A stretch of 44,330 bases of DNA, from sequence record PZ527900.1; one strand, written 5' to 3'. The notes below the pieces were generated by a model. The model saw only the letters and a list, made by a program, of their open reading frames with translations, did not search any database and had not been told where the DNA came from. How positions within the stretch are numbered: position 1 is the stretch's first letter; the number at the start of each line of letters is the position of its first letter. The DNA is from a phage. Positions 2,567-44,037 of the stretch are shown in pieces. The position numbers and the translations under genes were made by a program.

Positions 2567-2582
2567 GTCTCACATGCGAGAC
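2567..2582. repeat. 16-bp palindrome variant GTCTCACATGCGAGAC (copy 1 of 6, one mismatch)
   Basis: Extended stem GGGCTTGTCTCACATGCGAGACAGGCTC followed by TTATT; lies between the 53-aa ORF and gene 2622. Confidence 0.7.
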
Positions 2583-2621
2583 AGGCTCTTATTAAGTACA
2601 TTAAATAACTGGAGATTGATT

Positions 2622-3305
2622 ATGTGTAAATTAGTATTGAATGTAGGTGACAAGGTTCGTAATGTAAACAAGTATTCCCCTTACAAGGGGGAGGTCGGTG
2701 TAGTAATCAATGAAGACAAAGATATTTACTATGTACGTTACCAACAAAGCCAGGCAGAACAAGGATATCTTAAACTTAGTGCTCACAAACATCTTACAAA
2801 GATTGAAGAACCAACACATCAATGCAAGTGTGTACATGATGAGATTTGCGATAAGTGTGCTAGCCAGATGCAGAAAATGGTATTGCATCACCACATGTAC
2901 AGAGGTGGTATTCAAACCTTAGCAGAGTATATGGCAGAAAGAAAAACCACACTCAAGAAGGAGCGCCGCAATGTAATCACTGGTAAGACTCAAAGTGAAA
3001 TGATTAAGCAGTGCGGTACTGCATTAGGTGTTACACAGTTTAACACCCGTGCTCTAGGTAAATCGACAGGACAAGCTATGGTAAAGATTGGTGAAGCTAT
3101 GATGCACCCAAATGTACCTGTGCGAATCGCGGATGTGGACCATGCAATCACAGAACATGGCACACCTCGTCATGTAGCTAATAAGAACTTTGCAGCTATA
3201 GTTAATCATATTATCAAGAAGCAAGGTTTACTTGGCTTTATTGTTAATGAAGCTCATCTAGTCTACTGCCCTATCGTTACTGAAGAAACCTACGTGAATA
3301 TCTAA
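2622..3305 (+). CDS. hypothetical protein (227 aa); Cys/His-rich middle segment
   Basis: ATG at 2622 has GGAG 7 nt upstream; the ORF-track start at 2565 lies inside a palindrome hairpin and is unlikely. Segment HQCKCVHDEICDKC suggests metal binding. Confidence 0.6.
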   Translation: MCKLVLNVGDKVRNVNKYSPYKGEVGVVINEDKDIYYVRYQQSQAEQGYLKLSAHKHLTKIEEPTHQCKCVHDEICDKCASQMQKMVLHHHMYRGGIQTLAEYMAERKTTLKKERRNVITGKTQSEMIKQCGTALGVTQFNTRALGKSTGQAMVKIGEAMMHPNVPVRIADVDHAITEHGTPRHVANKNFAAIVNHIIKKQGLLGFIVNEAHLVYCPIVTEETYVNI

Positions 3306-3314
3306 GGAGTTACT

Positions 3315-3542
3315 ATGGCTACTAAAGTTTTAATATGTAAGACTGAAATAACACCTACAGGTTTAGCATATGGGGTGGTAACACCTTTTGGAGTTAAGCC
3401 TTATTTTATTAAAGAACTTGCAATTGTAGGTGCTGCTGCCTCTACATCGTTTCAGCAAGAATTGAGAGGTAAGCAGACAGAGTGGGAGTTCCGTCAGAAG
3501 AATAAAGTTGTAGGGTTTTTCATGGTGGAGGCTGAACGCTAA
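3315..3542 (+). CDS. hypothetical protein (75 aa)
   Basis: ORF with AAGGAG upstream, tightly packed with neighbours. Confidence 0.5.
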   Translation: MATKVLICKTEITPTGLAYGVVTPFGVKPYFIKELAIVGAAASTSFQQELRGKQTEWEFRQKNKVVGFFMVEAER

Positions 3543-3543
3543 T

Positions 3544-3792
3544 ATGTCTAAACACAGCCTTAAGATGTTTGATGGTCATGAAGATCTGCAAGCACAAATC
3601 ACTAACCAAGCCTTCCTGTTTGCACAGCTAACTATGGCTGAAGCAAAGAAGAATAGCCTGACGCGTGAGCAGGTTATCAAAGAGGCAACTTGGGAGCCAC
3701 ACCAAGGTAAATACATGGGCCAGAAATTAACTGTAACACGCAGTCGTGGTGCTACTCGTCGTATCAAAAACCACAGAAGTGGTGCTCGCTAG
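3544..3792 (+). CDS. hypothetical protein (82 aa)
   Basis: ORF starting 2 nt after the previous stop (translational coupling). Confidence 0.5.
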   Translation: MSKHSLKMFDGHEDLQAQITNQAFLFAQLTMAEAKKNSLTREQVIKEATWEPHQGKYMGQKLTVTRSRGATRRIKNHRSGAR

Positions 3793-3857
3793 TCGATAAG
3801 TCAAGGGTTGTCCAACGTGTTGGACAGCCTCTTTATCATATTGATCGGAGGTATTAA

Positions 3858-4010
3858 ATGACTAAGTTTACTATGCAAGACCTCATTAAACTACGTGATG
3901 AAATAGAATCACCGGAAGTTAATACAGAGTTTCACTACATTGATCCACGAGATAAACGAGAGATACCTGACTATCAGATTGAGACGGAGTTAATGTATGA
4001 AGACTATTAA
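3858..4010 (+). CDS. hypothetical acidic protein (50 aa)
   Basis: GGAGG 5 nt upstream of ATG 3858; below the ORF-track length cutoff. Confidence 0.4.
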   Translation: MTKFTMQDLIKLRDEIESPEVNTEFHYIDPRDKREIPDYQIETELMYEDY

Positions 4011-4215
4011 GCTAAGTAAGGTTTGCTCTTGCGGTAAAGGCTATCGTAGTCGTATTGATGGTAAGTGCGGACATTGCAGGTCTAAGAAAGAGGCTGCTTT
4101 GTTTGATAAGTACCACAATGAATTAGCATATAACTATCCTCATCTAACACCTAATTCTTTATTAGGGCTTGGTTATAGGGCTAAATACTTTGGGGCCATC
4201 TATGAAATCAATTGA
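3997..4215 (+). CDS. hypothetical small Cys-rich protein (72 aa)
   Basis: GGAG 7 nt upstream of ATG; CSCGKGYRSRIDGKCGHC looks like a zinc ribbon; overlaps neighbours by about 14 nt on each side. Confidence 0.4.
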   Translation: MKTIKLSKVCSCGKGYRSRIDGKCGHCRSKKEAALFDKYHNELAYNYPHLTPNSLLGLGYRAKYFGAIYEIN

Positions 4216-6748: not shown

Positions 6749-6759
6749 GTTATACTCAA

Positions 6760-6780
6760 GGTCACTTAAGAGTGGCCTTT
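6760..6780 (+). terminator. weak hairpin plus T-tract after the DNA polymerase gene
   Basis: GGTCACTTAAGAGTGGCC (7-bp stem, 4-nt loop) followed by TTTAT; shares GAGTGGCCTTT with the post-RNAP terminator at 43781. Confidence 0.3.
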
Positions 6781-6814
6781 ATGAATAACTTATTCCTACT
6801 TATTTTGTCTAACA

Positions 6815-7488: not shown

Positions 7489-8298
7489 ATGGCACGTGGT
7501 GATTTTGATTTTGGTGCTCAGGTTACTAAAGCTGAAGGTAAAGTATTTAAGAACCCTGAAGTTGGTGATCATGAAGCAGTAATCTCTGGTATCATTCATG
7601 TTGGTTCCTTCCAAGATATTTTTAAGAAAGGTAATACCACTGAAGTTAAGAAGCCAGCAAACTTTGTTCTTGTTAAGATTGTCTTGATGGGCGATGATGA
7701 CAAGAATGAAGATGATTCTCGCATGGAACAATGGATGCCTGTACCGCTGAAGTCTGGTGACAAGGCAACACTGACTAAGTTCCTGAATGCAGTTGACCCT
7801 AAAGAATTGCTGGGTGGCTTCGATGACTTCATTGGCGAATGTCTGACTGCAACTATGGTTGGCTCTGGAGACAAGAATGACGATGGCTCATTCAAGTATG
7901 TTAACTGGAAAGGTTTTGGTGGTATGCCAGACAAGCTGAAGAAACTTGTTATTGCTCAGGTAGAAGAAGAAGGTTTGGCTATGACAGGTCACATTACCTT
8001 CGACAAGCTGACCAAAGAAATCATTGATGACATTCCTGCTAATCTGGTACGTCAATACCTCTTGAATGAGACACCTCGTGGTAAGAACCTGTCTGTTGCT
8101 GGCTCTCACGTAGAAGCAATCATTAAAGCTGCTCGTGAAGAAGACCCAGAATGGAAGAAGGCTAAGAAGAAAGACGAAGAAGAAGATGCTACTCCGGCTA
8201 ATCGTAAATCTCTGGACACTGGTGAGTCTGTTCCACAGGAAGTACCAGAAGCGGACAATGCGCCTGCACCGGAAATGGATGAGGACGCGGAATATTAA
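7489..8298 (+). CDS. hypothetical protein with acidic C-terminal tail (269 aa); possible ssDNA-binding-type replication protein
   Basis: AGGAGA 8 nt upstream; Lys/Asp-rich; ends PEMDEDAEY (acidic tail with terminal aromatic). Function is a guess from the tail and genomic position. Confidence 0.6.
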   Translation: MARGDFDFGAQVTKAEGKVFKNPEVGDHEAVISGIIHVGSFQDIFKKGNTTEVKKPANFVLVKIVLMGDDDKNEDDSRMEQWMPVPLKSGDKATLTKFLNAVDPKELLGGFDDFIGECLTATMVGSGDKNDDGSFKYVNWKGFGGMPDKLKKLVIAQVEEEGLAMTGHITFDKLTKEIIDDIPANLVRQYLLNETPRGKNLSVAGSHVEAIIKAAREEDPEWKKAKKKDEEEDATPANRKSLDTGESVPQEVPEADNAPAPEMDEDAEY

Positions 8299-8527: not shown

Positions 8528-8543
8528 GTCTCACGTGTGAGAC
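8528..8543. repeat. 16-bp palindrome GTCTCACGTGTGAGAC (copy 2 of 6)
   Basis: Perfect inverted repeat starting 2 nt after the stop at 8526 and 15 nt upstream of P3. Confidence 0.8.
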
Positions 8544-8556: not shown

Positions 8557-8582
8557 GTATTTACTGGACACTATAGAAGAGA
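8557..8582 (+). promoter_or_regulatory. phage RNAP promoter P3
   Basis: TATTTACTGGACACTATAGAAGAG. Confidence 0.8.
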
Positions 8583-8630: not shown

Positions 8631-8999
8631 ATGTTCGCTATTGAAACTATCGTAAACCGTGTTGTTAAAGGTGCTGCTCTGGTATCCGTTGAGTCTTTCA
8701 TTATCGTCGATGAAGCTGGCTCTCTGGTCGCTGGCACTAAAGCCTATGACACCCGTGAAGAAGCTCAGGCTAAGATTGACAGCATGGGTAACTTCGCTGC
8801 TGGTCTGGAGTTCGCTCGTGCTTGCTTCCCTGAGCAGGCTGACAAAGCTCAAATTGGTAAGGCTAACATCGTAGCTGAATATCTGGACTGGATTGCTGCT
8901 GGTAAACCAGTGAAAGAAGTTAAAGCTGCTGAAGAAGCTGAAGTAGTAGAAGACGTAGCTGCACCGGAAGTACCGGTAAGCGAAGAGGAGGAGTTTTGA
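8631..8999 (+). CDS. hypothetical protein (122 aa), probably highly expressed; acidic C-terminus ending EEEEF
   Basis: AAAGGAG RBS; own promoter (P3) and hairpin terminator (9058); codon choice dominated by GCT, CTG, GAA, GTT, GGT. Confidence 0.65.
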   Translation: MFAIETIVNRVVKGAALVSVESFIIVDEAGSLVAGTKAYDTREEAQAKIDSMGNFAAGLEFARACFPEQADKAQIGKANIVAEYLDWIAAGKPVKEVKAAEEAEVVEDVAAPEVPVSEEEEF

Positions 9000-9057
9000 T
9001 AATAGTAGGTGTTGCCTCTGTTAGTCCTAGTTGACTATCACGCTCACCCATCTAATG

Positions 9058-9090
9058 CCCTGTCTGCCTTAGTGTAGGCAGGGTCTTTTG
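9058..9090 (+). terminator. hairpin plus U-tract terminator
   Basis: CCCTGTCT...AGGCAGGG 8-bp stem followed by TCTTTTG; near-identical in design to the terminator after the capsid gene. Confidence 0.55.
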
Positions 9091-11791: not shown

Positions 11792-12130
11792 ATGTTACAG
11801 CATCATTATGACAATACCTGTATGGCCTGCTTAGGAGAAGGTGAAGGGTACCTGCATACTTGCAAAGGCCCGGTTAAGTCCAACATGTTGGACAACAATA
11901 TGGTTACTAAGCCGAAGCACTATGAGTTCTTCGAAGGTGTAGAGGCAATCACTATCATTGCCCGTAGCATGACCGAGAAGCAATTCGCTGGGTATTGCAT
12001 GGGTAACGCTTTGAAGTATCGCCTGCGTGCAGGTAAGAAATTCAACACTGAAGAAGACCTGAAGAAAGCAGACTACTACAAAGAGTTATTCCAGAAGCAT
12101 CGTCACGAATGTATTGATGAGGATATTTGA
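11792..12130 (+). CDS. DUF3310-like phage protein (112 aa)
   Basis: GGAGGAG 5 nt upstream of ATG; PKHYEF...GNALKYRLRAGKK...DLKKADYY pattern typical of the DUF3310 family (recalled). Confidence 0.55.
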   Translation: MLQHHYDNTCMACLGEGEGYLHTCKGPVKSNMLDNNMVTKPKHYEFFEGVEAITIIARSMTEKQFAGYCMGNALKYRLRAGKKFNTEEDLKKADYYKELFQKHRHECIDEDI

Positions 12131-16627: not shown

Positions 16628-17830
16628 ATGTCTACACCGAATACTCTGACTAACGTTGCTGTATCCGCATCTGGTGAGGTTGACAGCCTTCTTATTGAGA
16701 AGTTTAATGGTAAGGTCAATGAGCAGTACATGAAAGGTGAGAACATTCTTTCCTACTTTGATGTACAGACCGTAACTGGTACAAACACTGTTAGTAATAA
16801 ATATTTAGGCGAGACTGAGTTGCAGGTGTTAGCACCGGGTCAGTCTCCTAATGCTACCCCGACTCAGGCAGATAAAAACCAGCTGGTAATTGATACCACT
16901 GTTATTGCCCGTAACACTGTGGCACATATCCATGATGTGCAAGGTGACATTGATAGCCTGAAACCTAAGCTGGCTATGAACCAAGCCAAGCAACTTAAGC
17001 GTCTGGAAGATCAGATGGCAATTCAGCAGATGCTGTTGGGTGGTATTGCTAACACCAAAGCAAAGCGCAATAAGCCTCGTGTAAAAGGTCATGGCTTCTC
17101 TATCAACGTCAACATTACTGAGAGCGAAGCACTTTCTAACCCACAGTATGTCATGGCTGCTGTGGAGTATGCTCTGGAACAACAGCTTGAGCAGGAAGTG
17201 GATATCTCTGATGTAGCTATTCTGATGCCATGGAAATTCTTCAATGCGCTGCGTGATGCAGATCGCATTGTAGATAAGACTTACACTATTAGTCAGTCTG
17301 GTAGTACGGTACAAGGCTTTGTATTGTCTTCTTACAATTGCCCTGTTATCCCGTCTAACCGTTTCCCAACCTTTGCACAAGGTGCAGCCCACCACCTGTT
17401 ATCTAATGCAGATAACGGGTATCGCTATGACCCGACAGCAGAGATGAATGGTGCAGTTGCTGTACTGTTTACAGCGGATGCGTTGTTAGTCGGTCGTACC
17501 ATTGATGTAACTGGCGACATCTTCTATGAGAAGAAAGAGAAGACCTACTACATCGATACCTTCATGGCAGAGGGTGCAATCCCAGACCGCTGGGAAGCTG
17601 TGTCTGTAGTTACAACCAAACGCAACACCACCACTGGTGTGGCTGAGGCTGGTGGTACTGATCACGCCACCGTTCTGTCTCGTGCACAGCGCAAGGCTGT
17701 ATACGTCAAGAGTGCAAACCCTACAGCAGCTGCAGTCGCTGCGAGCCTGCCTGCTGAAGACTTGGTTGCTGCCGTTCGTGCTGTAATTGCTAAGGACATT
17801 AAACCTGCTGCGATGACAACTGCTGTGTAA
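16628..17830 (+). CDS. major capsid protein
   Basis: 400 aa; own promoter and terminator; AAGGAG RBS; position between scaffold and tail tube genes. Confidence 0.9.
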   Translation: MSTPNTLTNVAVSASGEVDSLLIEKFNGKVNEQYMKGENILSYFDVQTVTGTNTVSNKYLGETELQVLAPGQSPNATPTQADKNQLVIDTTVIARNTVAHIHDVQGDIDSLKPKLAMNQAKQLKRLEDQMAIQQMLLGGIANTKAKRNKPRVKGHGFSINVNITESEALSNPQYVMAAVEYALEQQLEQEVDISDVAILMPWKFFNALRDADRIVDKTYTISQSGSTVQGFVLSSYNCPVIPSNRFPTFAQGAAHHLLSNADNGYRYDPTAEMNGAVAVLFTADALLVGRTIDVTGDIFYEKKEKTYYIDTFMAEGAIPDRWEAVSVVTTKRNTTTGVAEAGGTDHATVLSRAQRKAVYVKSANPTAAAVAASLPAEDLVAAVRAVIAKDIKPAAMTTAV

Positions 17831-17838
17831 TACCTATG

Positions 17839-17872
17839 CCCTATCTACCTTGCGTAGGTAGGGTTCTTTTTG
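17839..17872 (+). terminator. hairpin plus U-tract terminator after the capsid gene
   Basis: CCCTATCT...AGGTAGGG stem followed by TTCTTTTTG. Confidence 0.6.
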
Positions 17873-21752: not shown

Positions 21753-24700
21753 TGGCAATTGAGCGGCAAGCAGTACAAGGTCTGCCACAAGTGCAGGCCA
21801 CTTCTCCTAATGTCATGACCTTTGCACCTCAGCGAGTTGGAGGTGTGGAGGCTGGCGTGGCTTCTACCTCCGGTAGTCGATTTATCGAAGATCTTATTCG
21901 AGCAGCGAGTAGTGTAGCTGATGTTACTACTGGTATCCTTAATCAGAAGATTGAGGAAGATAAGGTTGTTCAAATGGAACGGGCATATAATGGATTGATG
22001 CCTTCTGAGGATGCAACTCGTGGTGGCGCTCGTGCTAACATGCTTGTCAAAGCTCAACTGCTAGCTAATGATGAAGCAGCACGAATGAAAGACATGGCTA
22101 CTCGTTTCCAAGGAACGGATGACGAGTGGACACAACTCATGGTAGACTCTCGTAATGATATGCAGAACAAGCTGTTCCAGCAATACCCTGAGTTGCAAGG
22201 TGACAAAGATACAATGCGTATGGTCACTAACGTATTCCAAGAGCAGCAGCCTCAGATTTGGGCTACACGAACCCAGCATAAACTTGAACGGGAACAAGCT
22301 GATCGTGAAGATACCTTTGATGGAAGAGTGGCATCCACTTGGGATTCTAACCTTGACCCAGAAGCATCCGGTTATGCACTACAAGAGCGTATTCGTGAAG
22401 GTCTAACTCAAGGGTTATTGCCAGAGCAGATGCACAAGAAGTTAGTAGATAGGGCTATTTCTCTTGCACAAAGCGGTGATATCAGCATGGCTAAAGCCTT
22501 GAAGTATGTTAAGGATGACAAGGGTGTTTCTGTGTATGCGAAGAATCCGCAGCTTATCACAGCTATCACTAATGGTAATGCAGCTTGGGCTAGAAATAAT
22601 GTAGCTGATGTAACTCGTATGTCTTTCGAAGTTAAAGAGTCCTACCTTGCAGGTGATTTAACTGATGAAGAATTACTGGAGCGAGCACAACATATTAATA
22701 GTCTGACAGGTAACTCTGTGTTCTCTAACTCAGAACTTGAAGGGTTAATGCGCCAACGAGCGAAGCAGAATGCAGAGCTAGGTGCAATGCAAGATATGCG
22801 CCGTGAACTTTACTCGGACCGTATGATTGGTCTTCAAGGTAAATCGGATAAAGAAAAGAAAGCATATGTTGATCTTATCAAGCAAGACAGTCAACTCTAT
22901 GCAGACCAGCAGATTAAACAGCGGGGTCTTGACCCTTACAGCCAAGAAGCTGAAGCTATTCGTGGTGCTATAGAAGTTCAACGCCTCCAGTTTATGAACT
23001 CCAAAGGCTTAGTGGATGACACTTTTGAGTCTCGTATCAAAGCTATGGAATCCATGCTATCACCTGAGCACTTTGCTAAAGGTGAACCACAAGAGTTAAT
23101 GACTATTCGTCAATTGTGGGAGCAGTTACCAGAAGAGAGCCGAGGTGTCTTTGGTGACACAGTTAATGGCTATATGGATAACTACAACACTGCATTGCAG
23201 ATGGGTGAGACACCTTTGCAGGCTGCAAGGTTTGCCCGTGAAGCACAGCAGAAGTTCTCCCGTACTGAGAAAGAAACTAAGAAGTTCAACGCAGCTATTG
23301 GAGACGCCTTGGATACCGTGTCCGGTGCTGGGTGGTTTGATGGTAAGAAAGAGGTGTCTGACTTAGGTAAAGCTATTGCAGAAGAAGAATTACGAGCTAA
23401 GGCCAACATGTTGTGGTCCAGTGGTATGCGTAACATGGATTCCCTCAAGAAGGCTTTAATTACTTGGGGGAATAAACGCTACACTCAATCAGAGGATGCA
23501 AAGATCTCCGGTGGGTATTTTATCAAAGGTGATTATACCTCTGCATCTGATATGCTTATGTCCGTTGGGAAAGGGGTAAACCCTACTGATGTACCACTGG
23601 CTCTTGGTCGGTATGTAGAAGAACAGATGCCAGAGTTGAAGAAGGAACTTCAAGAGTGGGAGACTAAGAAGGACGTGTACATTGATTATAATGAACAGAA
23701 AGGCACTTTCGTAATTCGTGCTGGTGCCGCAGGTCGGCCTCTTTCTGGGGTAATCCCTATAACCTCCTTGGACACCACTTCCTTGTTGGATTCTGCTTAC
23801 AAGAAGAAAGTAGAAGAACGAGATAAAGGTGAATATGTACATCCATATCGTACAGATATTGGCACACAAGAGCCTATGCCTGCTAAACCAACTGCCAAAG
23901 ATATTGGTAAGTTTGGACTAGCTAACTTCCTCATGTCTTCTGCTTTCGCCTCTGGTGAGAGTCTCCCTTCTAACTTCGAAATTAACTATCGAGGAAATAT
24001 GCAACAATTCTATGATAAATTGGCTATGGATGAGAATAAAGACAAAGTTGGCTTTAATAGTGCAACTGGTACTTTTACTCCATACAAAGATGCTCACGGG
24101 GAATCTATCGGCTACGGTCATTTCTTGACGGAGGAAGAGAAGCGGAACGGGTACATTAAGATAGGAGATGAACTAGTCCCATATCGAGGGTCTATGTCTC
24201 AGCTTACAGAGAGCAAAGCTCGTGCTCTTATGGAGCAAGATGCTAAGAAGCATGTGCCCCCTACTCGTGACTGGAAGATTCCGTTTGACCAGATGCACCC
24301 TGCACAGCAACGTGGCTTGATGGATTTAACCTACAATTTAGGTAAGGGTGGAATCCAGAACTCACCGCGTGCTCTTGCTGCATTCAAAGCTGGTAAACTT
24401 ACGGAAGGTTTTATCGAAATGCTGGGCACTGCATCAAGTGAAGGTAAGCGTATTCCGGGCCTACTGAAGCGACGAGCCGAGGCTTACAACATGGCATCTG
24501 CTGGTGGTGTACCAAAGATTACCGAAGTAGAGACTCGTGAGGATGGTTCTATGTGGGTTAAGTTTGGTGGACCCATGCCAGCAGGCTCTGTCTCTGCGTG
24601 GACTCATAAACGTATTGGTGCGGATGGTTGGTATCAGGTTTATGAGGCTGCACCTACTAAGCTGGCTAAAGGTGCCAAAGTAGGTAAAGTTAAGTTGTAG
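21752..24700 (+). CDS. internal virion protein with lysozyme-like segment
   Basis: 982 aa; C-terminal PYKDAHGESIGYGHFLT resembles the T4 lysozyme YKDTEGYYTIGIGHLLT region. Confidence 0.8.
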   Translation: MAIERQAVQGLPQVQATSPNVMTFAPQRVGGVEAGVASTSGSRFIEDLIRAASSVADVTTGILNQKIEEDKVVQMERAYNGLMPSEDATRGGARANMLVKAQLLANDEAARMKDMATRFQGTDDEWTQLMVDSRNDMQNKLFQQYPELQGDKDTMRMVTNVFQEQQPQIWATRTQHKLEREQADREDTFDGRVASTWDSNLDPEASGYALQERIREGLTQGLLPEQMHKKLVDRAISLAQSGDISMAKALKYVKDDKGVSVYAKNPQLITAITNGNAAWARNNVADVTRMSFEVKESYLAGDLTDEELLERAQHINSLTGNSVFSNSELEGLMRQRAKQNAELGAMQDMRRELYSDRMIGLQGKSDKEKKAYVDLIKQDSQLYADQQIKQRGLDPYSQEAEAIRGAIEVQRLQFMNSKGLVDDTFESRIKAMESMLSPEHFAKGEPQELMTIRQLWEQLPEESRGVFGDTVNGYMDNYNTALQMGETPLQAARFAREAQQKFSRTEKETKKFNAAIGDALDTVSGAGWFDGKKEVSDLGKAIAEEELRAKANMLWSSGMRNMDSLKKALITWGNKRYTQSEDAKISGGYFIKGDYTSASDMLMSVGKGVNPTDVPLALGRYVEEQMPELKKELQEWETKKDVYIDYNEQKGTFVIRAGAAGRPLSGVIPITSLDTTSLLDSAYKKKVEERDKGEYVHPYRTDIGTQEPMPAKPTAKDIGKFGLANFLMSSAFASGESLPSNFEINYRGNMQQFYDKLAMDENKDKVGFNSATGTFTPYKDAHGESIGYGHFLTEEEKRNGYIKIGDELVPYRGSMSQLTESKARALMEQDAKKHVPPTRDWKIPFDQMHPAQQRGLMDLTYNLGKGGIQNSPRALAAFKAGKLTEGFIEMLGTASSEGKRIPGLLKRRAEAYNMASAGGVPKITEVETREDGSMWVKFGGPMPAGSVSAWTHKRIGADGWYQVYEAAPTKLAKGAKVGKVKL

Positions 24701-24717
24701 TACCTAACTCAAGGCTT

Positions 24718-24733
24718 GTCTCACATGTGAGAC
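24718..24733. repeat. 16-bp palindrome GTCTCACATGTGAGAC (copy 3 of 6)
   Basis: Perfect palindrome; extended stem GGCTTGTCTCACATGTGAGACAGGTC followed by TTTAT. Confidence 0.8.
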
Positions 24734-24764
24734 AGGTCTTTATGATAGGCACTATGGAGGAACT

Positions 24765-27700
24765 ATGGAACAAGATATTAAAAATAATTGGGCTGGTTAT
24801 GTCCAGTCCACTCCTGAGCCGTTTTCTATTGAGGCGGCTCCGGTATCGGCTCCTACGATACGCCAGCGTAATGAGTTACAAGAGCAAGTTCTTGAAGCTA
24901 AAGCTGACGCGGACATCCTAGGGGCTGTGGGTGCTGCCTTCCAGAATGAGTGGCTGGCATTTGGAGGCAAGCGGTGGTATGACCGTGCCACCGCAGATTT
25001 CACACCTCAACCTGATTTTGAAATCCAGCCAGATAGACGTGAAGCACTTCGCTTCAAATATGGTACGGATATGATGCAGAAAATCACAGATGGTGTTCGC
25101 TCTGAGGATGAATTAAACTTCCGTATTCAGAATGCAGATGAAGACCTTGAGCGCAATAAACGTATTGCTCAGGCAGGCTGGGCGGGGTCTGTGGCAACGA
25201 TTGGCGCCGCTGTGCTTGACCCTGTTGGCTGGGTTGCCTCTATCCCAACTGGTGGTGCAGCTAAGGTGGGGCTTGTAGGACGTGCTGTTCGTGGTGCCAT
25301 TGCTGCTGGTGTGAGCAATGCCGCTATTGAATCCGTATTGGTACAAGGTGACATGACCCGTGATTTAGATGACATTATGGTAGCACTAGGCTCCGGTATG
25401 GCGATGGGTGGTGTTATTGGCGCTGTGGCACGTGGTAGGGCTACTAAACTCAGCGAGCAAGGCGACGATACGGCTGCTAGTGTTGTGCGAAGTGCAGACG
25501 CTGGGGACCGATATGTACGTGCCGTTGCCGATGACAGCATCGGTGCAATGCGTGTTAAGGGAGAAGAGGTGCTCACTGAGGGTGCATTTGATGTATCCAG
25601 TAAAGGTGAAGACTTGTTAAAAACATTGCAGCGAGAGGGTAATGCGATTGACATGACACCGCGCCGATGGGCCGGAACTATGTCTGCCCTTGGGACTGTC
25701 GTGCATTCCTCGCAGGATGCTAGTGTACGTGGCCTAGGTGCTCGCCTATTTGAATCACCACAAGGCTTAGGTATGCAGAAAGCATCTGCTAGTCTAATGC
25801 AGAATACCAACTTGAACCGTTTAAAGTCTGCTGATATGAACCGTTTTAATGATGGATTTGACTTATGGCTCAAAGAGAACAACATCAATCCGGTTGCAGG
25901 GCACACTAACTCTCACTATGTGCAGCAATACAATGAGCAGGTATGGGAGGCTGTTCGTATTGGCATGGATGAGTCCACACCTGAATCCATCCGCATGGCA
26001 GCTGAGGGGCAGCAGACTATGTACAGAGAAGCACTGGCTTTACGTCAACGCTCTGGTGAAGCTGGCTTTGAAAAGGTCAAGGCTGACAACAAGTATATGC
26101 CTGATATATTTGATAGTATGAAAGCCAGACGTCAGTTCGATATGCACGATAAAGAAGATATAATCGAACTCTTCTCTCGTGCCTATCAAAATGGTGCTCG
26201 TAAGATTCCAAAAGAAGCAGCAGATGAGATCGCACGAGCACAAGTGAATCGTGTTGCTGATGCTACCTTAACTGGAAGGCTTAGTTTTGAAAGGGCTATG
26301 TCCGGTCAGACTAAGGCGGAGTATGAAGCTATCATGCGTAAGGCTGGCTTTAGCGATGAAGAGATTGAAAAGATGGTAGAAGCTCTGGATAACAAAGAAA
26401 CCAGAGATAATATCTCTAATCGCGCTAAGATGAGTCTAGGGTTAGATGTTACTCAAGAATATAATGGTATTCGTATGCGTGACTTCATGAATACCAACGT
26501 AGAGGAGTTAACTGATAACTACATGAAGGAGGCAGCAGGTGGTGCTGCATTGGCTCGCCAAGGGTTCTCTACCTACCAGGCTGCACTTAATGCAATTGAC
26601 CTTGTTGAGCGAAATGCGCGTAACGCAGCTAAGAGCAGTAAAGAGAGTTTGGCGTTAGACGAAGAGATTCGTCAGATGCGAGAAGGTCTTCGCTTGATTA
26701 TGGGTAAATCTATTGATGCAGACCCACAAGCCCTGTCTACTAAGATGATGCGGCGTGGGCGCGACATTACAGGTGTGCTTCGCTTAGGGCAGATGGGGTT
26801 TGCACAGTTAGGTGAACTTGCTAACTTCATGGGTGAGTTTGGTATTGCTGCAACCACAATGGCTTTAGGTAAGCAATTTCGCTTTACCTCTAAGGCATTA
26901 CGCAATGGCGATGGCTTCTTCCGAGACAAGAACTTAGCAGAAGTAGAGCGAATGGTTGGCTATATTGGTGAGGACAACTGGCTGACAACGAAGGGAGCAC
27001 GTCCAGATGAGTTCGGTGACGTGACAACCATTCGTGGTGCTATGGCTCACTTTGACCAATCGATGAACTCAATTCGTCGTGCTCAGACCAACCTGTCCCT
27101 CTTCCGCATGGCTCAGGGTTCTCTGGAACGAATGACCAATAGGCAAATAGCCTTGTCTTTCATCGACCACCTTGAAGGTAAGAAGATTATCCCTCAGAAG
27201 AAACTGGAGGAGCTTGGTCTTACTCAGGAGTTCATGAGCCGTCTACAGAAACACTATGATGCTAACTCTAAAGGCTCAGGGTTGCTTGGCTTTGATACAA
27301 TGCCTTATGCCATGGGTGAGACTCTAGCTAATGCTATTCGTCGTAAGTCAGGTCTAATCATTCAACGTAACTTCATTGGTGATGAAGGTATCTGGATGAA
27401 CAAAGCCCTAGGCAAGACCTTTGCACAGCTTAAGTCCTTCTCTTTGGTGTCTGGTGAGAAGCAATTCGGTCGAGGCATTCGCCACGATAAGATTGGCCTA
27501 GCTAAGAAGACAGCCTTTGGCTTTGCTTTAGGTTCAATCGTGTATGCAGCGAAAGCCTACGTGAACTCTATTGGGAGAGAAGACCAAGATGAATATCTGG
27601 AAGAGAAGTTATCGCCTAAAGGGTTAGCCTTTGGTGCGATGGGTGTAATGAGTACAACTGCTGTATTTAGTCTAGGCGGAGATTTCTTAGGTGGCCTAGG

Positions 27701-37872: not shown

Positions 37873-38249
37873 CATTTAGGTAACAAAGTCAAAATTTTGA
37901 TATAGGCGTGTGTGGGGTGTCTCGGCCTCGGCCTCGCCGGGTTGTCCCCGTATGGGGTCGCTCGGCGGTTGGCTTGGGAATTGGTCTAGGCTGGTCCGTC
38001 TTCGACGGGTAGGCCGAGGCTTGCCTTGTACTCGCTTAGTGGTACACAAGGAGGGTGCCTAGGAAGCGCTAGGGCACGCCTTAGTATTGGACAAGGTGAT
38101 TGCCTTAGTGCAACCGCTTAGGGCTTACACAGGGCCATTCTGGGCCTTTATGGGCTATTGACAGGGTGGGCGGGTGTGGGCTATCTGTTCGTTTCGCCTA
38201 GCGGCTCAACTCAGCTCACTCCGCTTGCGCTACGTTCACTCGCTCACGT

Positions 38250-38524: not shown

Positions 38525-38540
38525 GTCTAACATGTGAGAC
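38525..38540. repeat. 16-bp palindrome variant GTCTAACATGTGAGAC (copy 4 of 6, one mismatch)
   Basis: Lies about 35 nt upstream of the candidate host promoter. Confidence 0.5.
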
Positions 38541-38573: not shown

Positions 38574-38602
38574 TTGACAAGGTAACATTAGTATAATACT
38601 AT
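38574..38602 (+). promoter_or_regulatory. candidate host sigma70 early promoter
   Basis: TTGACA, 17-nt spacer, TACTAT (a TATAAT also overlaps the spacer). Confidence 0.45.
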
Positions 38603-39782: not shown

Positions 39783-39849
39783 GATTTAACAGGGCGTTAC
39801 TTGTTAGCGCCCGATTAAGTTTATCTCAATAAACCAAATAGGTGAATAT

Positions 39850-40734
39850 ATGACTACTGAAAACACCCTCGTTTCTGTTCGTGAAGCTGCAACCGCTGAA
39901 ATCAAGCAACACTTAGACAATATCGGCACTTCTTACATCAAAGTTGGCGCTTGTCTGAATGAATTACGTGGTGACTTCGAAGGTCAAAAAGACTTTTTAG
40001 CTTATGTAGAATCAGAGTTCGGCATTAAGAAAGCACAATGTTACAAGCTGATGAGCGTAGCGCGTGTCTTTGAAGGTGACGAACGCTTCAAAGGTGTGGC
40101 TATGCGTGTAATGCTGGTGCTTGTTCCTTTCGCTGATGAAAGTATCATTATGGAGAAGGCCGCAGAACTTGCCGCAGATGGCAAGCTGGACACTGCCGCC
40201 GTAAACGCCTTGATTGAGCCTAAGAAAGAGCCAAAGACTGAGACGATACAATCTAAGCCTGAGCCAGTAAAACCGCAGGAGAACGCGACTGAGGACGCAG
40301 AATCACAGGAAACGCAAGCGCCGCAGGCAGTTCCGCCAGCTATCGAGTCAGATGCCGATGAAGCCTCACCATGGGAAGAGGAAAGCAAGACGGAAGCACC
40401 GAAGGCCGCGCCACGGGATAACACGGCTAACACTGAAAACGCCGCTATCGCGGGATTATTGGCACAAATTAAAGCACTGACGGAGCAGTTGCAGGCAGCT
40501 AATGACCGCATCGCCTCTTTAAGTAGCGCACGCGAAAGCAAGAAGGCAGCAGCGCCTATGCTTCCACAATTCAAATCATCTTGCTTCTACGCTCGCTTGG
40601 GTTTGAGTGCTGAGGAAGCAACGAAGAAGACCGCAGTAAACAAGGCACGCCGTGAACTGGTCAAGCTGGGATACGGTGAAGGCCATGAGGCATGGGCCTT
40701 AATCTCTGAGGCAGTAGAAGAATTGACTAAGTAA
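39850..40734 (+). CDS. early protein of unknown function (294 aa): folded N-domain, acidic/Pro-rich disordered linker, helical C-domain
   Basis: Linker EPKKEPKTETIQSKPEPVKPQENATEDAESQETQAPQAVPPAIESDADE; C-terminal FYARLGLSAEEATKKTAVNKARRELVKLGY resembles the start of a J-domain but lacks HPD. No kinase motifs. Confidence 0.65.
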   Translation: MTTENTLVSVREAATAEIKQHLDNIGTSYIKVGACLNELRGDFEGQKDFLAYVESEFGIKKAQCYKLMSVARVFEGDERFKGVAMRVMLVLVPFADESIIMEKAAELAADGKLDTAAVNALIEPKKEPKTETIQSKPEPVKPQENATEDAESQETQAPQAVPPAIESDADEASPWEEESKTEAPKAAPRDNTANTENAAIAGLLAQIKALTEQLQAANDRIASLSSARESKKAAAPMLPQFKSSCFYARLGLSAEEATKKTAVNKARRELVKLGYGEGHEAWALISEAVEELTK

Positions 40735-40797
40735 TCTTATCGGTGGTATTCTTCCTGAGTACCACCTCTTAAGGTTTCTTTCACTGGAGTAAGTATT

Positions 40798-41139: not shown

Positions 41140-41144
41140 ACAAG

Positions 41145-43772
41145 ATGCAAGATTTACATGCTATCCAGCTTCAATTAGAGGAAGAGATGTTTAACGGCGG
41201 TATTCGTCGCTTTGAAGCAGACCAACAGCGACAAATTGCATCAGGTAATGAGTCTGATACGGCTTGGAATCGCCGCCTATTGTCTGAATTAATCGCGCCG
41301 ATGGCTGAAGGTATTCAGGCATACAAGGAAGAGTATGAAGGTAAAAGAGGTCGTGCACCGCGTGCCCTTGCTTTCATTAACTGCGTAGAAAACGAAGTGG
41401 CAGCATATATCACGATGAAAATCGTAATGGATATGCTTAACACTGATGTTACCTTGCAGGCCATTGCCATGAATGTAGCGGACCGCATCGAAGACCAAGT
41501 GCGCTTCAGTAAGCTAGAAGGTCACGCCGCAAAATACTTTGAGAAAGTGAAGAAGTCGCTTAAGGCAAGTAAGACTAAGGCATATCGCCATGCGCACAAT
41601 GTAGCAGTAGTGGCTGAAAAGTCTGTAGCTGACCGTGACGCGGATTTCTCCCGCTGGGAGGCATGGCCCAAAGACACCTTGTTGCAAATAGGTACTACCT
41701 TGCTGGAAATCTTGGAGAATAGCGTATTCTTCAACGGGCAGCCTGTTTTCCTTCGTACCTTGCGCACTAACGGCGGCAAACATGGTATTTATTACTTACA
41801 AACTAGCGAACACGTAGGTGAATGGATAACGGCCTTCAAAGAGCACGTAGCGCAACTGAGTCCTGCCTATGCACCTTGCGTTATCCCTCCGCGTCCTTGG
41901 GTGTCTCCTTTTAATGGCGGTTTTCACACCGAGAAGGTAGCAAGCCGTATCCGTCTAGTTAAAGGCAACCGTGAGCACGTCCGTAAGCTGACCAAAAAGC
42001 AAATGCCAGCGGTATACAAGGCTGTTAACGCCTTACAGGCCACTAAATGGCAAGTCAATAAGGAAGTATTGCAGGTTGTTGAAGATGTTATTCGTCTCGA
42101 CCTTGGTTATGGTGTGCCTTCATTTAAGCCACTCATCGACCGCGAGAACAAGCCAGCTAATCCCGTGCCGTTAGAGTTCCAGCATCTAAGAGGCCGTGAA
42201 CTTAAAGAGATGCTAACGCCGGAACAATGGCAAGCCTTCATTAACTGGAAAGGCGAGTGCACCAAGCTGTATACCGCTGAGACTAAGCGCGGCAGCAAAT
42301 CGGCGGCAACCGTCCGCATGGTCGGGCAGGCCCGTAAATACAGCCAGTTTGACGCTATATACTTCGTGTATGCACTGGACAGCCGCAGCCGCGTCTACGC
42401 GCAATCTAGCACGCTCTCCCCGCAATCAAACGATTTAGGCAAGGCATTGCTCCGCTTTACCGAAGGGCAACCGCTAGATAGCGCTGAGGCGCTTAAATGG
42501 TTTTTGGTGAACGGGGCTAATAGCTGGGGTTGGGATAAGAAAACTTTTGACGTGCGCACCGCTAACGTGCTGGAGGGTGAGTTCCAAGATATGTGCCGCG
42601 ACATTGCAGCCGACCCGCTGACCTTCACTCAATGGGTGAATGCCGATTCGCCTTATGGCTTCCTTGCATGGTGCTTTGAATATGCGCGTTATCTGGATGC
42701 ACTGGATGAAGGTAAGCAAGACCAATTCATGACACACCTACCCGTCCATCAAGATGGTAGTTGCTCTGGTATCCAGCACTATAGCGCGATGTTACGCGAT
42801 GAAGTAGGTGCGAAAGCGGTAAACCTTAAGCCGTCCGACGAGCCGCAAGACATTTACGGTGCGGTTGCGCAGGTTGTTATACAGAAGAATTACGCCTACA
42901 TGAATGCAGACGATGCAGTAACTTTCACATCTGGCAGCGTCACCCTTACAGGTGCGGAATTGCGTAGCATGGCTAGCGCATGGGATATGATTGGAATCAC
43001 TCGCGGCTTAACCAAAAAGCCGGTTATGACCTTGCCATATGGTTCCACCCGCTTAACCTGCCGTGAGTCGGTTATTGATTACATCGTTGATTTGGAAGAA
43101 AAAGAGGCACAAAGGGCTATTGCAGAAGGGCGGACGGCGAATCCGGTGCACCCTTTTGATAATGACCGTAAAGACTATCTGACACCGGGCGCAGCTTATA
43201 ACTATATGACAGCCTTAATTTGGCCTTCAATCTCTGAAGTTGTTAAAGCCCCTATAGTGGCGATGAAAATGATTCGCCAGCTTGCACGATTTGCAGCTAA
43301 AAGAAATGAAGGGTTAGAATACCCCTTACCTACTGGTTTCATCTTGCAACAAAAGATCATGGCAACTGATATGCTACGCGTTTCTACTTGCTTGATGGGT
43401 GAAATCAAGATGAGTCTACAGATTGAAACGGATGTAGTGGATGAAACGGCAATGATGGGCGCTGCGGCCCCTAACTTTGTTCACGGGCATGATGCTAGTC
43501 ACCTTATCCTGACTGTATGTGACCTCGTGGATAAAGGTATTACATCCATTGCAGTTATTCATGACTCTTTTGGCACTCATGCAGGCCGCACCGCAGACCT
43601 GCGGGATAGCTTAAGGGCAGAAATGGTAAAAATGTATCAAGGTCGTAATGCCCTGCAAAGCCTGCTAGATGTACATGAAGAGCGTTGGCTAGTAGATACC
43701 GGCATCCAAGTGCCGGAGCAAGGGGAGTTTAACCTTGAAGAGATCTTAGTTTCTGACTATTGCTTCGCATAA
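41145..43772 (+). CDS. single-subunit DNA-directed RNA polymerase (SP6/T7 family)
   Basis: 875 aa; [42 protein letters not shown] and C-terminal ...DYCFA; N-terminus [32 protein letters not shown] matches SP6 RNAP as recalled. Confidence 0.95.
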
Positions 43773-43780
43773 TATTGATA

Positions 43781-43810
43781 GGCCATTCCTTCGGGAGTGG
43801 CCTTTTCTTT
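43781..43810 (+). terminator. rho-independent-type terminator after the RNAP gene (candidate early terminator)
   Basis: GGCCATTCC-TTCG-GGAGTGGCC (9-bp stem, UUCG loop) followed by TTTTCTTT. Confidence 0.6.
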
Positions 43811-43844
43811 ACCTGCTACCTGTAACATTTCATTAACATAAAGT

Positions 43845-43860
43845 GTCTCACATGTGAGAC
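43845..43860. repeat. 16-bp palindrome GTCTCACATGTGAGAC (copy 5 of 6)
   Basis: Directly abuts promoter P10. Confidence 0.8.
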
Positions 43861-43862
43861 TT

Positions 43863-43887
43863 ATATTTACCGGACACTATAGGAGAG
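43863..43887 (+). promoter_or_regulatory. phage RNAP promoter P10
   Basis: ATTTACCGGACACTATAGGAGAG. Confidence 0.7.
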
Positions 43888-44021
43888 AACCGTCGGAGAC
43901 GGGAGAGAGAAGGGAAGGTAAAGGATATAAAGGAAGTAATAAGTATTAAAGGTTATATAGGTTTACCTAGGAATACCTATTACCTTCTTCCTTCCTCTTA
44001 TTACTACTTAGAGGAAGGGCA
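43888..44021. other. AT-rich, purine-then-pyrimidine skewed segment between tandem promoters; candidate primary replication origin
   Basis: GA-rich left half (GGGAGAGAGAAGGGAAGGTAAAGG...), CT-rich right half (ACCTTCTTCCTTCCTCTTATTAC); contains AGGTTATATAGGT. Confidence 0.35.
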
Positions 44022-44037
44022 GACCTAGGTTGTCTCA
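44022..44037. repeat. 16-bp palindrome GTCTCACATGTGAGAC (copy 6 of 6)
   Basis: Directly abuts promoter P11. Confidence 0.8.

Follow-up and report, generated by a model that had tools for sequence, protein, structure and literature searches.

A conserved palindrome family in SP6-like phages and the early protein gp6 as its candidate DNA-binding partner

Gene expression in T7-type phages is governed by polymerase switching, genome entry, terminators and RNase III sites, and to our knowledge the textbook account of these phages includes no sequence-specific DNA-binding regulator. The RNase III sites of T7 (R0.3, R1.1, R4.7, R13 and others) are hairpins with an internal loop that lie between genes, shortly before ribosome-binding sites. 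Many dispersed palindromes, some of them promoter-proximal, are found in the KorB system of the IncP plasmid RK2, where the OB operator is TTTAGCSGCTAAA and KorB possesses a ParB-type CTPase domain and a KorA partner. In the ParB/Spo0J system, the half-site of the parS palindrome is TGTTNCAC. The PeSL cassettes of T4-type phages and bacterial REP elements are further examples of short palindromes repeated between genes, in some cases together with promoters.

The stretch of DNA analysed here (the window, 44,330 nucleotides) is a circularly permuted K1-5/K1E-like (Vectrevirus) genome with all genes in the same direction. It contains nine copies of a palindrome with the consensus GTC[TC][CA]AC[AG][CT]GT[GT][AG]GAC (Table 1), all on the transcribed strand. 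Each copy consists of two inverted 8-base half-sites, GTCYMACR, which abut in this phage. An exact search with GTCTCACRTGYGAGAC returned five sites (2567, 8528, 24718, 43845 and 44032) and none in shuffled sequence; when up to three mismatches were allowed, 14 strand-matches were found versus 1.1 expected, in agreement with the first-pass annotation, which had considered the recurrence to be far beyond chance. That annotation had listed six copies. The repeat is real and enriched, but the copies at 999, 3810 and 11878 had been missed; four of the coordinates were recovered by the exact search, the copy placed at 44022 lies at 44032, and the sequence at 38525 is one mismatch off the pattern ascribed to it. 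The six had been described as perfect and always intergenic. Only those at 24718, 43845 and 44032 are perfect, the 8528 copy having a G/T centre and the 2567 copy an A/C mismatch, and two copies of the family (999 and 11878) are intragenic.

Table 1. Palindrome copies and associated features in the window.
Feature	Position	Strand	Sequence	Context
Palindrome	999..1014		GTCTCACGTGTTAGAC	Inside primase/helicase gene 400-2388; in-frame S-H-V-L-D
Class A RNA hairpin	2547..2603	+		RNAfold -33.4 kcal/mol on +, -19.2 on -; covariation in alignment A3
Palindrome	2567..2582		GTCTCACATGCGAGAC	Between helicase region and gene 10; class A, tip of hairpin 2547-2603
Class A RNA hairpin	3792..3845	+		Around 3810 copy; -27.6 kcal/mol on +, -16.4 on -
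Palindrome	3810..3825		GTCCAACGTGTTGGAC	Intergenic; variant arm type, class A
Palindrome	8528..8543		GTCTCACGTGTGAGAC	Core only; 2 nt past gp17 stop codon, 15 nt before phage promoter
Phage RNA polymerase promoter	8559..8581	+	ATTTACTGGACACTATAGAAGAG	
Palindrome	11878..11893		GTCCAACATGTTGGAC	Inside gene 11792-12130 (similar to T7 gp1.7; kinase gene); in-frame S-N-M-L-D
Class A RNA hairpin	24695..24757	+		Around 24718 copy; -29.9 kcal/mol on +, -23.2 on -
Perfect palindrome	24718..24733		GTCTCACATGTGAGAC	Between two large internal virion protein genes; class A
Left-end copy	38525..38540		GTCTAACATGTGAGAC	33 nt upstream of first sigma-70-like early promoter (TTGACA at 38574)
gp6 (294 aa)	39850..40734	+		Candidate palindrome-binding protein
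Perfect palindrome	43845..43860			Past RNA polymerase gene terminator, 4 nt before phage promoter
Phage promoter	43865..43887	+	ATTTACCGGACACTATAGGAGAG	
Perfect palindrome	44032..44047			5 nt before second phage promoter of origin-like region
Phage promoter	44053..44075	+	ATTTACCGGACAGTATAGATAAG	

The surroundings of the copies were largely as first described: two of them adjoin the promoters of the origin-like region, one precedes a promoter by 15 nt, and the copies at 2567 and 24718, to which that at 3810 can be added, are extended into longer stems. The palindrome is found upstream of only 3 of the 12 phage promoters of the window, and the palindrome-promoter spacing differs (0, 4, 5 and 15 nt), which argues against one fixed protein-polymerase contact. 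Relative to the origin-like region with twin promoters that follows the RNA polymerase gene, seven of the nine copies are located between about -5.5 and +12 kb, and two of them flank this region directly.

The motif was detected in all SP6-like phages examined, with 4-11 copies each at syntenic sites, and this includes every relative with a helicase identity of at least 66%. Phage SP6 carries 11 copies, and at six sites the sequence is GTCTAAC...GTTGGAC, corresponding to U-G wobble on the + strand; the earlier impression that neither T7 nor SP6 has an equivalent therefore remains valid for T7, where the search revealed no recurrent palindrome, but not for SP6. More distant Pseudomonas, Vibrio and Pectobacterium phages contain related versions of the motif. 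In Proteus phages, the same arms surround a 3-nt centre, and Achelous-like, Vibrio phi-A318-like and PP99-like phages have GTCTCAC-N3-GTGAGAC or GTCTAGTAYACTAGAC; the half-sites are one base apart in some lineages, and the outer GTC...GAC is invariant across all of them. Among the individual sites, the 999 copy is syntenic in 25 distinct relatives, the 11878 copy has an SP6 counterpart at 17752, the 3810 site has GTCTCAC arms in K1E and CrRp3, and the left-end copy was found in every relative examined, its two half-sites varying independently. These comparisons indicate that the motif family is real and old.

Three of the copies (2567, 3810 and 24718, class A) cap sense-strand hairpins of about 60 nt, and the remaining six have no extended stem. 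The hairpin at 2547-2603 consists of a lower stem of 10 bp, an internal loop and an upper stem of 13 bp capped by the palindrome, and it is followed by the Shine-Dalgarno sequence of the next gene. In alignment A3, comprising 30 sequences, 96% of the positions concerned are paired and compensatory changes are seen in 13 of the 24 pairs; the alignment has a covariation score of 0.49, versus 0.18 for shuffled alignments (none of 500 reached 0.49), and slid partners scored no higher than 0.125. The + strand forms the more stable structure in 65 of 66 cases, with means of -27.2 and -17.1 kcal/mol for the + and - strands, respectively. The Rfam 15 scan of the whole window gave no matches at the gathering threshold. 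The properties of a T7-type RNase III site (a hairpin of about two turns, an internal loop and conserved RNA structure) were found in class A only. Like T7 R-sites, class A hairpins are intergenic, have an asymmetric internal loop (their length is about 23 bp) and precede ribosome-binding sites closely, their positions including one that follows the primase/helicase gene and the late region; they differ in being capped by a conserved palindrome, whereas the R-sites are not known to share a conserved apical sequence. It is most likely that class A hairpins are RNase III-type processing or stability elements. An RNase III-type hairpin had been among the options first considered for the palindrome, and the RNA structure is well supported for these three copies of nine but does not extend to the other six.

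The core-only copies, which are located before three phage promoters, at the left end and inside the helicase and kinase genes, seem to be of a different nature. A hairpin-breaking mismatch at positions 4/13 or 5/12 occurs in 42 of 156 distinct core-only contexts versus 1 of 60 extended copies. The half-sites are limited to the types TC, TA and CA, combined as single-step hybrids; no TC/CA double hybrids were met among the copies compared, an absence that might also stem from a degree of selection for self-complementarity. The centre is invariably R-Y in the 16-mer or A-N-T in the 17-mer, so the symmetry extends through bases that are unable to pair in a hairpin. Since hairpin-breaking mismatches are tolerated and the symmetry passes through the centre, core-only copies behave like double-stranded DNA sites.

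The intragenic copies point to constraint on the DNA as well. In the 999 copy, synonymous positions are frozen (Val GTG in 25/25 and Asp GAC in 25/25) and flanking codons are free to vary; the T at position 12 keeps the helicase frame free of a TGA stop. The copy within the RNA polymerase gene of relatives occupies the same position in the 16-bp and 17-bp lineages, where different amino acids are encoded. Judging by these patterns, intragenic copies are under nucleotide-level selection. Two observations are less favourable to an operator: the coding copies are all in one reading frame, which an operator model does not predict, and three presumed operators coincide with RNA hairpins in all lineages.

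The candidate for the binding protein is gp6, which T7 lacks and every lineage with the motif encodes (at 33-50% identity in distant lineages). Its predicted structure starts with a helix-turn-helix domain resembling ParB/KorB and continues through a disordered, acidic linker and a long helix to a small C-terminal domain. The similarity to the ParB/KorB DNA-binding domain is at the level of the fold, with Foldseek E-values above 0.3; a comparison with solved structures gave no sequence-level match, and the Pfam scan of gp6 gave no match at threshold. In the Pfam scans of gp6 and four orthologues, the CTP-binding ParBc domain (GxxRxxA) was not found even at E up to 5, and the gp6 model has the helical DNA-binding-like domain at its very start.

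The arm sequence of the palindrome is tracked by residue 66 of gp6, which occupies the sixth position of the predicted recognition helix. This residue is K in all seven lineages with GTCTCAC arms, among them the K1-5 clade, which is nested among N-type phages; it is N wherever the arms are GTCCAAC, H in SP6, which has a mix of GTCTAAC and GTCCAAC, and R in the GTCTAGT lineage. No exceptions were encountered in about 70 loci, some of them on viral and metagenome contigs that were retrieved only once the rule had been formulated. When nine conserved proteins were compared (about 3,080 aligned columns), the two groups were separated only by gp6 residue 66 and one conservative L/M column of the exonuclease, both uniform in all GTCTCAC lineages and different in GTCCAAC lineages. 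The correlation rests on some three to four coupled changes and may in part reflect phylogenetic inertia. K-type genomes also retain one or two GTCCAAC sites (3810 and 11878 in the window).

The half-site TGTCTCAC, with the usual flanking T and A included, matches the parS half-site at 7 of 8 positions, the eighth being N. However, the halves of the palindrome are 2-3 extra central bases apart as compared with parS, the exact 16-bp palindromic parS TGTTNCACGTGAAACA is absent from the window and the relatives searched, and gp6 lacks the N-terminal CTP-binding domain of ParB. No ParA-like gene was noticed among the annotated genes of K1-5, K1E and SP6, and partition is not an obvious need for a phage that persists neither as a plasmid nor as a prophage. 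The distribution of sites fits the KorB-type layout, and the covariation of gp6 with its sites supports the pairing. At the same time, OB is unrelated to the palindrome, neither a CTPase domain nor a KorA partner was detected for gp6, and the replicon is not a plasmid but a strictly lytic phage of the T7 supergroup, in which repression is putative.

It seems that the element is a double-stranded DNA operator bound by a dimer of the early protein gp6, a reading to which we assign a probability of about 0.55. The site of a dimeric regulator, one of the options originally put forward, is the interpretation best supported for the whole family by the half-site behaviour, symmetry, intragenic constraint and gp6 covariation. 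The dimer would contact the palindrome via two N-terminal ParB/KorB-type helix-turn-helix domains, which the flexible acidic linker would connect to a dimerisation module consisting of a coiled-coil and the C-terminal part. Each genome would have about ten operators, clustered around the origin-like region and located upstream of the left-end early host-type promoters, immediately upstream of three phage promoters, inside the helicase and other genes, and at three gene boundaries. By analogy with KorB of RK2 and ParB/parS, bound gp6 may modulate the promoters next to it, organise or mark the genome during replication, or do both. Once transcribed, the palindrome at each of the three gene boundaries also forms the apical stem of the hairpin before the next ribosome-binding site, and one sequence would carry both a DNA and an RNA signal.

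According to one alternative, all copies are hairpins of the sense transcript acting in processing, stability or pausing, with the sequence kept by an RNA-binding factor or nuclease specific for the apical stem-loop. The three structured copies per genome with their conserved G-U pairs, the location of every copy on the transcribed strand of unidirectional genes and the U-G wobble at the six SP6 sites agree with this. Nevertheless, C-A, C-T or A-G mismatches, stably inherited per site, break the 6-bp stem in 27% of core-only contexts, and C7 and G10 are invariant though unable to pair across the symmetric 2-nt centre. A copy upstream of the first early promoter, copies within the RNA polymerase and helicase genes, the lack of a matching Rfam family and the covariation of the arms with a residue of a DNA-binding-type fold likewise make this alternative unlikely. 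A role in replication, with the palindromes extruded near the origin on single-stranded or supercoiled DNA as hairpins or cruciforms for loading, priming or nicking, would account for the clustering around the origin-like region, and the invariant GTC...GAC recalls GTC, the recognition sequence of T7 primase. It is rendered improbable by the very short length of a 16-bp palindrome with a 2-nt centre, the frequent mismatches between halves, a wobble orientation (T-G versus C-A) not sorted by side of the presumed origin and the lack of conservation of the bases 5' of GTC, which a T7-type primase copies; moreover, SP6 primase reportedly recognises GCA, not GTC.

It is quite improbable that the copies, placed before promoters and between genes, are terminators or insulators for the RNA polymerase of the phage or the host. 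A consensus scan flagged 3805-3830, 43845-43860 and 44032-44047 as terminator-like, the record of Proteus phage Pm5460 annotates the homologous post-helicase hairpin as a rho-independent terminator, and putative terminators after genes of unknown function are listed for the SP6 group (PMC4837284). Yet the T-rich tails seen at 43845 and 44032 belong to the promoters, whose upstream ends are A+T-rich, the copies at 2567, 24718, 8528, 999, 11878 and 38525 were not flagged, and the motif family as a whole lacks the G+C-rich stem directly followed by a U tract that defines an intrinsic terminator. Clear G+C-rich terminators (43780-43803, 17838-17864 and 9057-9084) lack the motif, copies inside the helicase and kinase genes and, in relatives, the RNA polymerase gene cannot terminate efficiently, and sequences of terminator hairpins are not normally conserved across phages with a polymerase identity of only 42-75%. 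The terminator-antiterminator option raised initially is not supported, in view of the same ordinary terminators and the copies inside essential genes. Least probable of all is a recombination linker or self-spreading repeat with no function of its own, like REP elements or the promoter-stem-loop cassettes of T4-type phages, even if copies are located at module boundaries and the same site switches en bloc between GTCTCAC and GTCCAAC in close relatives, as if by conversion between copies. Unlike PeSL and REP, the copies are syntenic over very large distances rather than mobile or scattered, and those in frame within genes are not insertions (16 is no multiple of 3) and have synonymous positions under selection. 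Centre length or arm type shifts genome-wide in concert, together with gp6 residue 66, and a transposase or RAYT-like gene is absent.

The operator reading may be part of a larger scheme, which we put forward tentatively, at slightly less than even odds: a previously unrecognised circuit in SP6-like and neighbouring groups of the T7 supergroup, where an early protein of the ParB/KorB fold (gp6 in K1-5, gp7 in SP6) would read about ten co-evolving operators, residue 66 (K/N/H/R) would set which arm sequence is recognised, and three operators would have been co-opted as apical stems of RNA hairpins. The proposed one-residue/two-base specificity code is amenable to swap tests. Phages of the SP6/K1-5 group widely serve as RNA polymerase sources and in therapy against K1 E. 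coli, Klebsiella, Salmonella and Erwinia, and genome engineering calls for caution in view of nine short sites, two of them intragenic, selected at the nucleotide level. If the scheme is true, a function would be assigned to a conserved "hypothetical" early gene, and an operator network with its own early DNA-binding protein would constitute a new layer of control or genome organisation in the SP6/K1-5 group.

Nine copies of the palindrome family are present in the window. The first-pass annotation had listed six, described as a perfect palindrome that is always intergenic. Its exact 16-bp pattern was found at five sites, with a chance expectation of none; four of these had been positioned correctly, the fifth had been entered as 44022 by a slip, and the sixth listed copy is present but differs from the pattern by one mismatch. 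Three copies had been overlooked, two of them inside genes, and the symmetry is perfect in three copies only. The association with promoters was borne out at three sites; the remaining nine of the 12 phage promoters of type ATTTACYGGACACTATAGRAGAG have no palindrome. On the whole, the original observation is real and stronger than was first stated.

Positions of palindrome copies and associated features (window coordinates unless a phage or locus is named)
Feature	Position	Remarks
Palindrome copy	999	inside primase/helicase gene; overlooked earlier
Palindrome copy, class A	2567	exact pattern
Palindrome copy, class A	3810	arms GTCCAAC/GTTGGAC; overlooked earlier
Palindrome copy	8528	exact pattern; 15 nt upstream of promoter 8559
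Palindrome copy	11878	inside another gene; arms GTCCAAC/GTTGGAC; overlooked earlier
Palindrome copy, class A	24718	exact pattern
Palindrome copy	38525	one mismatch
Palindrome copy	43845	exact pattern; 4 nt upstream of promoter 43865
Palindrome copy	44032	exact pattern; 5 nt upstream of promoter 44053
Decayed copy, RNA polymerase gene	42560-42575	CGCTAACGTGCTGGAG
Class A 3′ arms	2590-2615, 24740-24765	conserved element
Promoter-like segment	24742-24762	ATGATAGGCACTATGGAGGA, in class A 3′ arm
gp6	39850-40734	294 aa
gp16	7489-8298	
gp18	8631-8999	
Promoter upstream of gp6	39760	ATTTAGCTGACACTATAAGAGAG
Hairpin upstream of gp6	39792-39812	small, G+C-rich
Terminator-like hairpin	43780-43803	after RNA polymerase gene
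Terminator-like hairpin	17838-17864	after capsid gene
Terminator-like hairpin	9057-9084	after gp18
Non-coding transcript	43882-44031	~150 nt
Identical ends	1-55, 44276-44330	
ORF across assembly junction	44266-44330 into 56-266	starts MELWRNIEGHEGYEVSNLGRVRS
Same-frame intragenic copies, relatives	L008 5622; L009 5800, 21301	
Second palindrome, PP99-like L164	7939-7956, 8017-8034, 16305-16322	examples
T7 (L167) palindrome	66-82, 39843-39859	GTCAACCTTCGGTTGAC, once per terminal repeat

The window is a complete, circularly permuted genome of 44,330 bases: its ends are identical over 55 bases, so it represents a circularised assembly of a linear genome, and alignment with K1-5 places the physical left end near 37,970. 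All genes lie on the + strand. The phage is K1-5/K1E-like and belongs to Vectrevirus, in the Molineuxvirinae, which form the SP6 branch within the T7 supergroup; identity to K1-5 and K1E is about 90% across most of the window. The ORF crossing the assembly junction carries a NUMOD4/HNH-type homing-endonuclease signature and is placed between gene 8 and the primase/helicase gene, where K1-5 has no such ORF.

The conservation proposed as a check was found: the copies occupy the same places in K1-5 and K1E. The site equivalent to 3810 reads GTCCAAC in the window and K1-5 and GTCTCAC in K1E and CrRp3. A de novo near-palindrome scan of Molineuxvirinae (SP6, Citrobacter CrRp3, Klebsiella K44PH129C1, cp4 and F4M1D, Pectobacterium PP1 and Erwinia phiEa100) revealed in every genome a single dominant family, GTC[TC][CA]AC[AG][CT]GT[GT][AG]GAC, with 8-11 syntenic copies per genome. 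The syntenic sites comprise one at the left end, ahead of the early host-type promoters, two that follow the terminator of the RNA polymerase gene and precede a phage promoter each, and others past the helicase region, ahead of the small genes that precede the DNA polymerase gene, ahead of the gp18 promoter and between the two large internal virion protein genes. Further sites lie within the primase/helicase gene, within a kinase or ligase-region gene and, in many lineages, within the gene for RNA polymerase. The same pattern was found in 27 viral contigs collected via the helicase gene; an exact-pattern scan of viral contigs gave mostly single chance matches and was uninformative beyond the ~44-kb relatives. 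In Proteus phage Pm5460 the arms are unchanged around a 3-nt centre, TGTCCAAC-A[ACG]T-GTTGGACA. Distant relatives, with helicases 42-47% identical, carry comparable repeats at equivalent kinds of position: GTCTCAC-N3-GTGAGAC in Pseudomonas phage Achelous and its relatives and in Vibrio phage phi-A318 and two further lineages, and GTCTAGTAYACTAGAC in Pectobacterium phage PP99 and its relatives. It is close to certain that a conserved, functional family of cis-elements exists.

The T7 genome contains no recurrent palindrome; its sole palindrome of the GTC...GAC kind has arms similar to GTCCAAC/GTTGGAC. In the PP99-like Pectobacterium phages (genomes L160, L164 and L165) a second recurrent palindrome, GTACTAGT-NN-GCTAGTAC, often lies beside the GTCTAGTAYACTAGAC repeat, and its arms equal those of the E. 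coli trp operator (GTACTAGTTAACTAGTAC).

Three sites per genome belong to class A, in which the palindrome core forms the tip of a ~60-nt hairpin. Its lower stem of 10 bp and its upper stem of 13 bp are separated by a small, asymmetric internal loop, a 4-nt loop closes the upper stem, and the hairpin ends a few bases upstream of the Shine-Dalgarno sequence of the next gene. In an alignment of 30 diverse class A sequences, 96% of cells were paired and compensatory changes were found in 13 of 24 pairs; the covariation score was 0.49 versus 0.18 for shuffled alignments (0/500 as high) and at most 0.125 with slid partners. Because of conserved G-U pairs, the + strand fold is far more stable, in 65 of 66 cases (mean −27.2 versus −17.1 kcal/mol on the − strand). 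Covariation and strand asymmetry together indicate that class A is a sense-RNA structure. In architecture and placement these hairpins resemble the RNase III sites of T7, and the earlier suggestion of an RNase III-type hairpin may by this analogy suit the class A subset, but not the remaining, core-only copies, which are not hairpin-like. The class A 3′ arm carries a conserved CATTAA(C/A)TAA or GGCACTATGGAGG just ahead of the Shine-Dalgarno sequence, also at homologous sites in relatives, and a segment of one such arm has the appearance of a degenerate phage promoter.

The core-only copies do not behave as hairpins. A stem-breaking mismatch at positions 4/13 or 5/12 occurs in 42 of 156 distinct core-only contexts versus 1 of 60 in class A, and asymmetric versions are stably inherited at particular sites. 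The half-sites are restricted to three types (TC, TA and CA at arm positions 4-5), paired as single-step hybrids; C7 and G10 are invariant, though unable to pair across the 2-nt centre, and the centre is always purine-pyrimidine in the 16-mer or A-N-T in the 17-mer. The element is therefore most simply described as GTCYMACR repeated in inverted orientation, the spacer being 0 or 1. The core is preceded by T in 165 and followed by A in 182 of 216 contexts. Sorting of the T-G and C-A variants by side of the origin, as a strand test, was not clean.

The copies inside genes are selected at the nucleotide level. That in the helicase gene reads S-[H/N]-V-L-D, and GTG and GAC are the only codons used for its Val and Asp in 25 distinct contexts, with Ser TCT or TCC and Leu TTA or TTG, while adjacent Asp, Gly, Thr and Arg codons vary freely. 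The H/N residue switches along with the arm type of the genome, and K1-5-type phages have TTAGAC instead of TGAGAC, so that no TGA stop arises in the helicase frame. In the RNA polymerase gene, the copy holds the same position in 16-bp and 17-bp lineages with different residues (...RVSNVLD... versus ...RVSRCET...); it is intact in PP1, phiEa100, Achelous, phi-A318 and several contigs and decayed in the window. All the intragenic copies, which lie in at least four unrelated genes and include window copies 999 and 11878, share one frame, G|TCN NAC NNG TTR GAC (S-[H/N]-[V/M]-L-D). This preference is not predicted by an operator model; it could simply follow from which of the three possible translations can be tolerated.

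Several other roles were considered. A terminator function had been proposed at first, and single hairpins in relatives have been annotated as putative rho-independent terminators, both in the Pm5460 genome and in PMC4837284; the clear terminator-like hairpins of the window, G+C-rich with a T run, lack the motif, and a terminator role does not fit the palindromes. The invariant GTC ends recall the recognition site of T7 primase, but the copied 5′ flank is not conserved, and SP6 primase reportedly uses GCA. There is a likeness between the right arm with the following A (TTGGACA) and the K1-5-type promoter at positions −11 to −6, but it is missing in phiEa100, Achelous and phi-A318, and the partial-promoter reading was rejected. 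As a host transcription-factor operator, the motif is not known to match any of the CRP, LexA, PurR, DeoR, FadR, MetJ, SlmA, matS or RutR sites, and the recurrence of the same arms in Escherichia, Erwinia, Pseudomonas and Vibrio phages points to a phage factor.

A change of arm type or of centre length affects all copies of a genome at once, which implies a factor that reads the sequence. Proteins common to all motif-bearing lineages and missing from T7 include gp6, gp16, gp17 and gp18. The early protein gp6 has its gene immediately ahead of that for RNA polymerase. The Pfam scan of gp6 gave no domain at threshold, its orthologues matching DUF3102 weakly (Achelous, E 0.009; phiEa100, E 0.16), and a J-domain-like appearance of its C-terminus had no Pfam support. 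Searches of gp6, gp16 and gp18 against PDB by sequence yielded no match, nor did scans with Pfam and PHROG reveal a DNA-binding domain in ten small conserved proteins. In an AlphaFold2 model of gp6, built from an alignment of 54 sequences, residues 10-122 form a helical N-domain predicted with confidence (pLDDT about 90). It is followed by an acidic, disordered linker of 65 residues, a long helix (192-234) and, at the C-terminus, a small helical domain; Foldseek ranked ParB/KorB-type proteins, weakly. The gp6 gene is directly preceded by a phage-type promoter and a hairpin, so it may be transcribed by both host and phage polymerases. gp18 (…SEEEEF) and gp16 (…EMDEDAEY) each have an acidic tail whose last residue is aromatic, similar to those by which T7 gp2.5 and gp4 dock on DNA polymerase; gp16 is probably an SSB, judging by its acidic tail, and gp18 could be a further partner in the replisome.

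In the predicted recognition helix of gp6, I-K-K-A-Q-C-Y-X-L-M, residue 66 (X) follows the arm sequence. Lysine accompanies GTCTCAC in the K1-5, Erwinia phiEa100 and Pseudomonas Achelous clades, the Vibrio phi-A318 lineage, locus L195 and the metagenome lineages L227 and L228; asparagine accompanies GTCCAAC in the Klebsiella K44/cp4 and F4M1D groups, PP1, Proteus Pm5460 and many contigs; SP6, with histidine in the counterpart gp7, has a mix of GTCTAAC and GTCCAAC; and the PP99 lineage, with arginine (and W63), has GTCTAGT. The rule has zero exceptions at about 70 loci, including viral and metagenome contigs recovered with gp6 and fetched after it was formulated; locus L204 gave a weak partial gp6-like match and lacks the relevant genome part. 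Judged by all its other genes, the K1-5 clade falls within the N-type phages, which indicates at least two coupled switches of residue and arm, in addition to those of SP6 and PP99, and K-type genomes retain one or two GTCCAAC "fossil" sites. When nine conserved proteins were aligned (about 3,080 columns), only two columns, gp6-66 and a conservative L/M position in the exonuclease, are uniform in all GTCTCAC lineages yet different in GTCCAAC lineages.

We consider that the palindromes are the operator set of gp6, a predicted dimeric DNA-binding protein of ParB/KorB fold, with a probability of about 0.55. The dimeric regulator suggested initially would suit one layer of the copies, with an RNase III-type hairpin fitting another. 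About ten sites are clustered round the origin-like region, some abutting promoters and some intragenic, a layout most similar to KorB/OB of RK2 and ParB/parS, and, once its flanking T is included, the half-site (TGTCTCAC) comes close to that of parS, TGTTNCAC. Unlike ParB, gp6 has no CTPase domain and is therefore not, strictly speaking, a ParB family member. Between the two origin-region promoters, in the place that the R1.1 RNase III site and origin occupy in T7, lies a non-coding transcript that begins with a small hairpin, CCGTCGGAGACGG, followed by purine-rich GAGAGAGAAGGGAAGG, able to pair with the downstream pyrimidine run CCTTCTTCCTTCCTCTT; its fold scores only slightly above shuffled sequence (z −1.9). 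The literature search, which did not include the two primary SP6/K1-5 genome papers, where an earlier mention is possible, found no description of the repeat family, the 16-mers or gp6, and the paper on the phi-A318 genome is silent on the motif.

As an operator-binding protein, gp6 would tolerate 0 or 1 central spacer bases owing to its long flexible linker. Three of its operators would coincide with putative RNA processing hairpins, which may indicate that a perfect palindrome, once transcribed, lends itself to seeding a long stem. Candidate functions of gp6 binding would be the tuning of the early promoters and of the phage promoters flanking the origin, the marking or organising of replicating DNA, or both.
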